From Ignavibacteriota bacterium (GTDB lineage Bacteria > Bacteroidota > Ignavibacteria > UBA10030): 64,000 nucleotides of DNA. Below the pieces are notes generated by a model. That model was not told the DNA's origin. It saw only the letters and a list, made by a program, of their open reading frames with translations, and did no database searches. Location of the stretch: assembly GCA_963701295.1 (NCBI GenBank), contig OY969585.1, positions 2,016,001 through 2,080,000 on the forward strand. Direction: 5' to 3'. Below, piece by piece: positions 20,354 through 51,416 of this stretch. The position numbers were made by a program, and so were the translations under genes. Within the stretch, counting starts at the first letter, position 1. The number at the start of each line of letters is the position of its first letter.

Positions 20354-20538
20354 AATATCCTCCTTACGTTTGTTGATAAAAGAAGTAATTACAGAGTTTG
20401 AAGTTCTGAGAGATGATACAGAGTAACCTCTTAATTGTCAAGTGTCTGTGCCACAAAATCCTGTTGCTCTGCGGGGACTTTTTGCCTATATTTCAACATG
20501 TTTAGTATAAATGCTGAAGAAGCTCAGTGGTAGAGCAG

Positions 20539-20651
20539 TCCCGATAATTTCACGCTGGTGTAGCTCAGTGGTAGAGCAGCGGTTTCGTAAACCGCAGGTC
20601 GTCGGTTCAAGTCCGACCACCAGCTCAGAAAAACAACGGAAATTATCGGGA
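20539..20651. repeat. 13-bp perfect inverted repeat flanking tRNA-Thr
   Basis: TCCCGATAATTTC (20539-20551) and GAAATTATCGGGA (20639-20651). Confidence 0.9.
20554..20625 (+). tRNA. tRNA-Thr(CGT)
   Basis: GCTGGTG/CACCAGC acceptor; anticodon arm GCGGT-TT-CGT-AA-ACCGC; T-arm GTCGG-TTCAAGT-CCGAC. Confidence 0.97.
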
Positions 20652-20676
20652 TAAACCGAAGGTCGGAGAAAGGTTC

Positions 20677-20706
20677 TCAACCGAAGGCTGATCCGCCTCT
20701 GACGGA
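20677..20706 (+). repeat. 30-nt double-hairpin insert in a tRNA T-loop (copy 1)
   Basis: TCAACCGAAGGCTGA + TCCGCCTCTGACGGA directly after GGTTC. Confidence 0.8.
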
Positions 20707-20751
20707 AACTCCCAGCTTCAGCTCAGCGTCAGAAAACAGTTCTTGTTCCTC

Positions 20752-20776
20752 ATCCGCCGTTGAGCGGATTTTTTTA
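20752..20776 (+). terminator. Terminator-like hairpin after the tRNA locus
   Basis: ATCCGC-cgttga-GCGGAT followed by a T run. Confidence 0.65.
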
Positions 20777-20803
20777 TCTTATATTGTTAAAAGAACATAA
20801 ATA

Positions 20804-21367
20804 ATGTCATTTCTTGAAGTTTTTTTCATTGCACTCGGTTTAGCTTCGGATGCATTTGCGATTTCTATTAGTGCAGGATCAACTGGTGTGACGACAGAAC
20901 CGCGGGCTATGTTACGGTTATCTTTCCATTTTGGACTTTTTCAATTTTTAATGCCCATCTTTGGCTGGCTTGCAGGTTTAAGCATCGAACACTATATCCA
21001 AATGTTCGATCACTGGATTGCGTTCGGACTGCTTCTGTGGGTTGCTGTGCACATGATTCGATCTGCCCAAGCTGGTAACGAACGTGCCGTCCAACAAGAT
21101 CCCAGCCGGGGAATGATGCTGGTTATTCTCTCTGTTGCGACAAGTTTGGATGCGTTAGCGATTGGATTGAGTTTGACGTTATCGCAAGTATCTATTTGGT
21201 ATCCTGCTGTTGTTATTGGTATCGTTACAGGCGTTGTATCATTTGTCGGTATTTTGCTTGGTCGGCGGTTTTCCAAGAAAGTTGGAAAGTGGGCGGCTGT
21301 AGTAGGAGGTGTTTTACTTGTTCTTATAGCTGTTAGGATCCTTTTGGTTCACATTCTTCCTCTATAA
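20804..21367 (+). CDS. mntP: Manganese efflux pump MntP
   Basis: ALGLASDAFAISI, FGLFQFLMP, DHWIAF, VATSLDALAIG. Confidence 0.92.
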   Translation: MSFLEVFFIALGLASDAFAISISAGSTGVTTEPRAMLRLSFHFGLFQFLMPIFGWLAGLSIEHYIQMFDHWIAFGLLLWVAVHMIRSAQAGNERAVQQDPSRGMMLVILSVATSLDALAIGLSLTLSQVSIWYPAVVIGIVTGVVSFVGILLGRRFSKKVGKWAAVVGGVLLVLIAVRILLVHILPL

Positions 21368-50926: not shown

Positions 50927-51090
50927 AAAAGTGCTACTTAGAAAATATGATAGGAAAAGATTGATGGAAAAGCAATGAGGAGTATAGGGACAATTCTTTA
51001 CAGATTTTATCTAAATTGGTTTTTTAAAAGCAGTTTGGAAAAATATGCCTGCTTAACGAAATTCTGTGTTTTTTTTTGTATAATAGAGTT

Positions 51091-51147
51091 TGGCGAAAGA
51101 GGAGGATTCTGCGCTAGTGGCGCATGAGCCTTCGGCTCAGAACCCTC
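51091..51147 (-). repeat. Duplicated tRNA 3' half with 30-nt double-hairpin T-loop insert (copy 2; insert 51110-51139)
   Basis: Minus strand GAGGGTTC-[TGAGCCGAAGGCTCA TGCGCCACTAGCGCA]-GAATCCTCCTCTTTCGCCA versus the tRNA-Ser 3' end GAGGGTTCGAATCCCTCCCCTTCCGCA. Confidence 0.85.
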
Positions 51148-51416
51148 AATGATCATCTGTTATAGAATTAGGAATTTTCATATTCTCATTGAGCCATTTT
51201 CGAACAACACCAGATTTGAGGAATAACTCACGCTTCCTTGCCTTACCTAAGAGTCGGATAGAATTCAGAATGAATAAGGATCCAAGGAATCCCTTTTGAT
51301 GTGAATGGAGTTTTCCCCCAGTTGTGTGCCATAAGACGATCTTCAGGATTTTTTTCGGCTGAGTCAACATAGCGTTTGTGCAGTTTGAAACTCCATAGCA
51401 CATAGATCCAGAACAT
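51146..51416 (-). pseudogene. Small GIY-YIG nuclease gene, frameshifted near 51246
   Basis: MFWIYVLWS..HKRYVDS...RLMAHNWG..FT..GIPW.LI..E, then (frameshift) ARKRELFLKSG..RKWL. Confidence 0.85.

Follow-up and report, generated by a model that had tools for sequence, protein, structure and literature searches.

REPIN/RAYT elements are short, non-coding and non-autonomous palindromes. Integrative elements in tRNA genes encode an integrase and supply a replacement fragment, so that part of the gene is duplicated as a direct repeat without loss of bases, and tRNA introns and split tRNAs have an insert in the anticodon arm. CGTC-tagged REPs, which are short, non-coding and non-autonomous palindromes, are described from Chlorobi and Bacteroidetes (Di Nocera 2013, PMC3733652). 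According to the accessible text on the Ssn/NTS (SRM) system, the single-domain GIY-YIG protein SsnA cuts single-stranded DNA a few bases upstream of its hairpin and tolerates removal or extension of the loop in vitro; an origin from mobile elements is proposed by the authors (Chenal et al. 2025, PMC11893778). The GIY-YIG enzyme SegB of phage T4 is described as aimed at a conserved tRNA stem-loop motif and as spreading tRNA genes by gene conversion (PMC2330249).

Here we describe a 113 bp, non-coding cassette with an 87-nt hairpin loop that replaces 8 nt (tRNA positions 28–35) of a tRNA-Thr gene in an Ignavibacteriota bacterium. The Ssn/NTS system ties a small single-domain GIY-YIG gene to a short hairpin (PMC11893778); in our case such a gene, of about 90 amino acids, stands beside the hairpin family at other tRNAs, and none was found at 138 Thr(CGT) loci. 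The published SRM pattern has no match in the nested locus, with loops of up to 5 or 120 nt, or at any of 30 GIY-YIG loci, and the word 'tRNA' does not occur in the main text of PMC11893778, whereas the hairpin described here takes the place of bases within tRNA genes and has an entire gene as its cargo. The cassette is not a formal member of Ssn/NTS. REPs, as their accessible description has it, have loops of 4-5 nt and no cargo, in contrast to the fixed tRNA site, 8-nt loss and 87-nt loop seen here. SegB differs in being a double-strand cutter in phage crosses whose gene travels with the region, and the accessible text of PMC2330249 describes neither hairpin nor nesting.

The locus resembles integrative elements in that a tRNA gene is disrupted and a working copy kept (as in genome G004, below), but it has a complete gene within inverted arms and no coding sequence: neither an integrase nor a direct att repeat accompanies the 113-bp cassette. 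Unlike in tRNA introns, eight bases are gone, including two of the three anticodon bases, so that splicing could not restore the outer tRNA; with positions 28-35 missing, the would-be exons do not rejoin to a complete tRNA. When compared with IS elements and MITEs (DDE), terminal inverted repeats are present as perfect 13-bp arms, but there is no target-site duplication (relative to the allele of G001, 8 nt are lost) and there are no dispersed copies in the genome. By analogy, the cassette may work like a nuclease-served, non-autonomous hairpin repeat, as proposed for Ssn/NTS and REPs.

Anatomy of the nested tRNA-Thr locus

The window, that is, the whole stretch of 64,000 nucleotides analysed, comes from a 3.64-Mb single-contig genome (G000; other G labels denote related genomes and L labels loci or contigs), and positions below are on its plus strand. 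The outer 5' half of the resident tRNA-Thr(CGT) (20513..20538; tRNA positions 1-27) was assigned to allele 'a' by sequence comparison and equals the intact gene of G001, G005 and G012 except at position 8, where the conserved T is an A. It is followed by the left arm of the hairpin, 13 nt long and containing the TCCCGAT core of the family (20539..20551, likewise by sequence comparison), a 2-nt spacer and an intact inner tRNA-Thr(CGT) of allele 'b' (20554..20625; ARAGORN; Rfam RF00005, 75 bits), which has a complete cloverleaf with a CGT anticodon and no encoded CCA. An A-rich spacer of 13 nt within the hairpin loop (20626..20638), with homologous spacers in G010 and contigs L251 and L261, leads to the right arm (20639..20651), the exact reverse complement of the left (TCCCGAT…ATCGGGA). 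The outer 3' half (20652..20723; position 36 to the discriminator) is again allele 'a', with several changes relative to the unchanged copy in G010, and the 8 nt missing from the outer tRNA correspond to 20580-20587 of the inner gene. By sequence comparison, a second, separate hairpin insert of 30 nt occupies the dead T-loop of the outer half (20677..20706); G010 is without it, G004 and L251 have it, and relatives of it occur in other tRNA fragments of the same genome.

The earlier note, made from the sequence, had described an intact tRNA-Thr(CGT) inside a degenerate tRNA-Thr, with 13-bp inverted repeats. Every part of that arrangement is present, although the two spacers were missing from the description, and its estimate that about 8 nt of the anticodon arm had been replaced is exact. 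It was also right that the outer acceptor stem is fully paired (7/7 pairs) and differs from the inner one at two compensated pairs, namely pairs 5 and 6. In the predicted fold a 14-bp stem closes around the inner cloverleaf (-80.9 kcal/mol, z -4.7, 0/200 shuffles as good). Perfect 13-bp inverted repeats with a spacer of 60-120 nt occur just nine times in the genome, and neither a further exact copy of the 13-nt arm nor another copy of the cassette was found there.

ARAGORN and Rfam report the inner tRNA alone and not the outer halves, and it is the sole tRNA-Thr(CGT) among the 48 genes called. Its codon, ACG, makes up 9,912 of the 45,320 Thr codons in long ORFs of the genome, and tRNA-Thr(UGU) may also read it; this usage, together with retention of the gene in most genomes, fits selection for an intact tRNA-Thr(CGT) copy. 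A putative -10-like element, TATATT (20487..20492, read by eye), lies upstream of the outer 5' half and resembles motifs upstream of many of the tRNA-Thr loci compared; a sigma-70 scan of the locus returned no plus-strand promoter. Downstream of the entire nest are a terminator-like hairpin with a T run (20752..20779; consensus match only) and, outside the element, mntP (20804..21367; Pfam PF02659), which served as synteny and tree marker. The neighbours of the locus are a polysaccharide deacetylase gene and mntP, and the gene beyond them is presumably that for ATP synthase beta.

The nest is real and no product of misassembly. Its left junction is spanned by contigs of related strains that other studies assembled independently (X2 record 11, X16 record 3), and further such contigs span its right junction (X4 record 27, X16 record 6); the whole layout is present in G010 and in two metagenome contigs. 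In the sequencing runs searched, at most 0.15 of words matched (all contigs), and X16, an RNA library, shows no transcription.

Alleles of the locus in related genomes

Empty and alternative alleles, which the earlier note had proposed to look for upstream of mntP, were found in relatives. In relatives that include a sister species (G001, G005 and G012), a single intact tRNA of the outer type comes immediately after the upstream flank, with both flanks as in the nest; G002 and G013 have a plain allele of the inner type. Since both plain forms occur in the genus, the compensated pairs of the acceptor stem reflect two standing alleles and are no sign of selection on the outer fold. The full nest with unchanged outer halves is present in G010, the left arm alone in G009 and G015, and the right arm alone in G008. 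Dead copies in which the same 8 nt have given way to a closed hairpin (loop of 2-3 nt) occur in G003, G006 and G007 and on contigs L241 and L248, each of them next to an intact gene.

In G004 a 5.8-kb element that encodes two tyrosine integrases (PF00589) lies inside the inner gene and so divides the nest (L031:1450-7200). This element has left a direct repeat ending in the anticodon arm, with the gene rebuilt, no base lost and no hairpin added, and the arms of the nest are located outside it. An element end similar to that of G004 follows a 5' fragment of tRNA-Arg(CCT) at G000:C1:2839317.

In a tree of mntP (471 nt) G001 groups with G009 and G010 (97/94), and G000 and G004 fall outside. The empty G001 thus lies inside a nested clade and may be a revertant formed by collapse of the nest rather than a site that was never invaded; the cassette in G000 may be old and vertically inherited. 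The alternative is repeated invasion, which is favoured by the unchanged outer halves of G010, and one short gene is insufficient to settle between the two histories. The outer halves of G000 and G004 carry substitutions and inserts, and with the missing 8 nt supplied to those of G000 no tRNA was called by ARAGORN. Dead tRNA halves at L223, L051, L332, L215 and L218 gather distinct types of hairpin at fixed sites, namely the D-loop, variable loop and T-loop, sometimes as a hairpin within a hairpin.

Spread of the arms across the order

An intact anticodon-arm motif occurs in 217 of 277 genomes of the order (228 matches, 150 of them listed). In all, 147 loci were examined and 12 dropped as partial or too near a contig end, which gave 134 scored genomes (30 of the examined loci were drawn from a search that ordered its matches by similarity to the window; family f7 lies outside the sample and f8 is partly in it). 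Both arms were present in 15 of these genomes, with the same junctions in six families, and one arm in 18 more (right arm alone in 11, left arm alone in seven); the other 101 had no arm, four of them with a closed-hairpin copy. Random windows match the arm patterns at 0.02% (left) and 0.34% (right), and a looser pattern, which gave false positives, was excluded from scoring.

Among 22 hand-picked two-arm loci (16 genomes and six metagenome contigs) the 7-bp core is nearly fixed. Outside it, the arms covary: positions 8-13 pair in 109 of 132 cells, with changes on both sides, against 83 +/- 4.5 for permuted partners, a difference inflated in part by the presence of two arm families and by kinship. 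The inner and outer acceptor alleles, read by eye, differ in 14 of the 17 legible loci and are equal in three, with five unreadable. The equal loci are G059, G157 and L250, to which the separately found G200 can be added, and equality is what local copying would give. When the 8 nt were supplied to the outer halves, a full tRNA resulted in four of 10 loci tested (G010, G057, L249, G200; an eleventh locus was left out), which suggests recent formation in separate lineages. Between G010 and L261, 23 of 27 non-core cassette bases are common, yet only 82 of 123 bases upstream.

The strict left-junction pattern was found in seven of 64 genomes of the order and in none of 337 others in the class, and the same layout is present in records L090, L158 and L124, titled Ignavibacteriae, Ignavibacteria and Chlorobiaceae respectively. 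The layout was found solely in one order and one distant contig; eight matches in viral contigs were rejected as chance, having no tRNA context, as were most of at least 119 matches in genome scans. Mimicry of the T-loop TTCG by the anticodon loop was also discarded, as Thr(TGT) genes without TTCG are struck at the same place. A full two-arm nest is present at tRNA-Thr(TGT) in G139 (L397:1430-1710), and L356 has the left arm in the same type of gene. At L243 a tRNA-Thr(CGT) is nested at a D-loop junction with other arms and unrelated neighbours, which we take to be prfB-, ftsE- and ftsX-like genes; this nest has a probable independent origin.

The TCCCG…CGGGA hairpin family and small GIY-YIG genes

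The genome has six PF01541 matches, and three of these are small genes 121-236 nt from tRNA genes, each adjoining a partial tRNA copy with a hairpin. At tRNA-Ala(GGC) (L343:195-640; G000:C1 about 2356095-2356540) an intact GIY-YIG gene of 88 amino acids (L343:308-571; PF01541, E 1.6e-17) ends in a tRNA copy in which a TCCCG…CGGGA hairpin replaces the anticodon arm directly after the D-arm. The product of this gene is the best candidate enzyme for the cassette. At L344 and L345 (G000:C1 3414600-3415500 and 3297300-3298000) a GIY-YIG gene lies between a hairpin-bearing 5' tRNA fragment and an intact tRNA, which is tRNA-Cys or tRNA-Leu(CAA). A search with a hand-written GIY-YIG motif gave no match. 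Ssn/NTS nucleases are placed in CDD cd10448; no NCBIfam family covers the 88-amino-acid protein, and its nearest solved relatives are the UPF0213 proteins 1ywl and 1zg2.

Homologues of this protein are encoded in 118 of 151 genomes. Among the best 30 homologue loci, taken one per genome, 29 are within 400 nt of a tRNA, one of these being in G000, and 14 have the same left junction. The hairpin replaces the 17-nt anticodon arm of Ala or Val in nine of the 30. In six, 8 nt in the T-arm of tRNA-Asp have been exchanged for it, four from the stem and four from the loop, which is the same geometry as at positions 28-35 of the nested tRNA-Thr. Some tRNA-Asp copies have variable loops of 17-23 nt, and in one copy a 19-nt loop is enclosed by arms that belong to the second cassette family. 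The same closed hairpin also marks tRNA-Lys copies beside a GIY-YIG gene in the Patescibacteria record L157. No GIY-YIG gene was found at the 138 Thr(CGT) loci (flanks of 0.9-1.5 kb, one informative query); the cassette is therefore non-coding wherever examined, and the enzyme link rests on shared motif and geometry.

Several further loci of this kind were noted. On the minus strand of the window (51080-51415) a broken GIY-YIG-like gene, seen by eye and absent from the Pfam matches, lies behind tRNA-Ser(CGA) and precedes a 3' fragment of tRNA-Ser whose T-loop has a related hairpin insert of 30 nt. At G000:C1:2938650-2939400 a GIY-YIG gene of 105 amino acids, presumably Ssn-like, stands among GTCATTGCGA-type repeats, one of which holds a small TCCCGAC hairpin; the SRM pattern had no match there. 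Tandem arrays of 14 and seven small GIY-YIG genes with a period of about 300 nt occur at G002:C2:365003-369130 and G019:C9:1492187-1494253 respectively. A 1.4-kb IS-like element with a 351-amino-acid ORF, which we take to be IS110-like, is present in nine copies (G000:C1 226328, 234902, 2413185, 2474610, 2479987, 2828990, 3164689, 3557432 and 3563837) and holds a TCCCGAC…GTCGGGA hairpin in its non-coding end; no link between this hairpin and the cassette was established.

Discussion

We lean, with slightly better than even confidence, towards reading the cassette as a likely non-autonomous, tRNA-carrying member of the TCCCG…CGGGA family that was moved in trans and whose cargo rescues the gene that it broke. 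The earlier note had proposed that a tRNA unit bounded by inverted repeats landed in a paralogous tRNA. Landing is supported by the empty allele of G001, by junctions that are fixed across families and by the covarying arms; the target was not a separate paralogue but the other allele of the same gene, and the unit is part of a wider hairpin family tied to GIY-YIG genes. From the fixed junctions, 8-nt loss, covarying arms, intact cargo gene, empty and one-arm alleles and tie to GIY-YIG genes we infer mobility and an enzyme for the cassette. Points against the model include the position of G001 inside the nested clade, the equal inner and outer alleles at four loci, the failure to find a GIY-YIG gene at the Thr(CGT) loci covered and the tuning of the arm patterns by eye on the same loci.

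We propose, by analogy with SsnA, that a small tRNA-nested GIY-YIG nuclease, acting in trans, recognizes the paired arms in single-stranded DNA whatever the content of the loop. It would cut at or beside the arms, and the cut would promote recombination via short flanking homologies in the tRNA, 26 nt on the left and about 38 nt on the right. A bare hairpin would kill the gene that received it, whereas the tRNA-laden form would spare function and so could spread and persist. After insertion the outer halves would degenerate and pick up further hairpins, and one arm would be removed, or the nest collapsed, by recombination between the duplicated stretches of tRNA. A bolder version seems to us less likely than not: a 113-bp non-coding mobile element, with a working copy of its own target gene as its only cargo, would home into tRNA-Thr by replacement of eight bases, driven in trans by a tRNA-nested GIY-YIG enzyme that reads the arms and disregards the loop, swapping alleles between species and re-nesting like Russian dolls.

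Another explanation for the data, possible although we consider it unlikely, is that the bare hairpin alone is mobile and kills the gene, that a tRNA from the same or a related genome was then patched into its loop, and that the nest has since been inherited vertically. The closed mini-hairpin copies would fit such a local rescue, as would the four loci where inner and outer alleles are equal, the separate amplification of left and right modules (G154, G039, L248), the different junction used by the L243 nest and the apparently ancestral state of the nest in the G000 clade. However, the alleles differ in 14 of the 17 nests in which they can be read, two families of arms recur across several host families with spacers of similar length, and between clades the cassette is better conserved than its flank, all of which speak against local rescue.

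It is improbable that the arms and outer fold are a selected RNA structure, a processing or regulatory scaffold for maturation of the inner tRNA. The predicted fold is very stable, arm pairing is kept across loci, the nest is likely to lie in one transcription unit and the outer halves of G010 are unchanged, but of 134 genomes 101 lack both arms and 18 have a single one, the structure has been lost in the close relatives G001 and G009, and the outer halves of G000 and G004 have substitutions and inserts. A retained precursor fold, the second possibility raised by the earlier note, is not supported: outer halves decay, collect hairpins or get lost, and most of the scored genomes are armless. 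The copy in G000 is a decaying relic, and the decay of its outer halves makes a selected processing fold unlikely. The inner tRNA may nevertheless be cut out of one transcript starting before the outer 5' half: since the gap between the outer half and the inner gene is too short for a promoter, and since the nest ends in front of a terminator-like site, maturation from a single precursor is likely on the sequence available.

A scar of a tyrosine-integrase element with a tRNA attachment site is very improbable. Such an element, with its two PF00589 integrases, does lie inside the inner tRNA of G004, but as it leaves a direct repeat, rebuilds the gene, loses no bases, adds no hairpin and has the arms outside it, G004 largely refutes this explanation. 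That the cassette is what remains of a MITE or IS mobilized by a DDE or Y1 (RAYT) transposase is scarcely credible: the terminal inverted repeats and the related hairpin at the end of the nine-copy IS-like element would suit it, yet 8 nt are lost in place of a target duplication, no exact copy of the 13-nt arm exists elsewhere in the genome and the site is fixed within tRNA genes. The chance that an assembly artefact created the nest is negligible, as independent assemblies share the junctions, each with its own substitutions.

In the literature searched (titles and the starts of abstracts, mostly of open papers), neither the nest nor hairpin cassettes with tRNA-nested GIY-YIG genes were found described; the nest is real and recurrent and apparently undescribed. 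On the bolder version, nuclease and hairpin would together form a site-specific insertion system, so far undescribed, that can carry cargo. If the mobile cassette model is true, it offers a testable answer to how short palindromes spread without a transposase, a question raised in the REP and Ssn papers, and the locus provides a defined donor, target, junctions and candidate enzyme with which to pursue it. There is also an RNA question, namely how RNase P gains access to a tRNA that is enclosed by a 13-bp stem and has a leader of only two unpaired bases. If a hairpin-guided nuclease with tolerance for cargo exists, it could serve as a tool, and the cassette would be among the smallest of gene-carrying mobile units, with self-rescue as its strategy.
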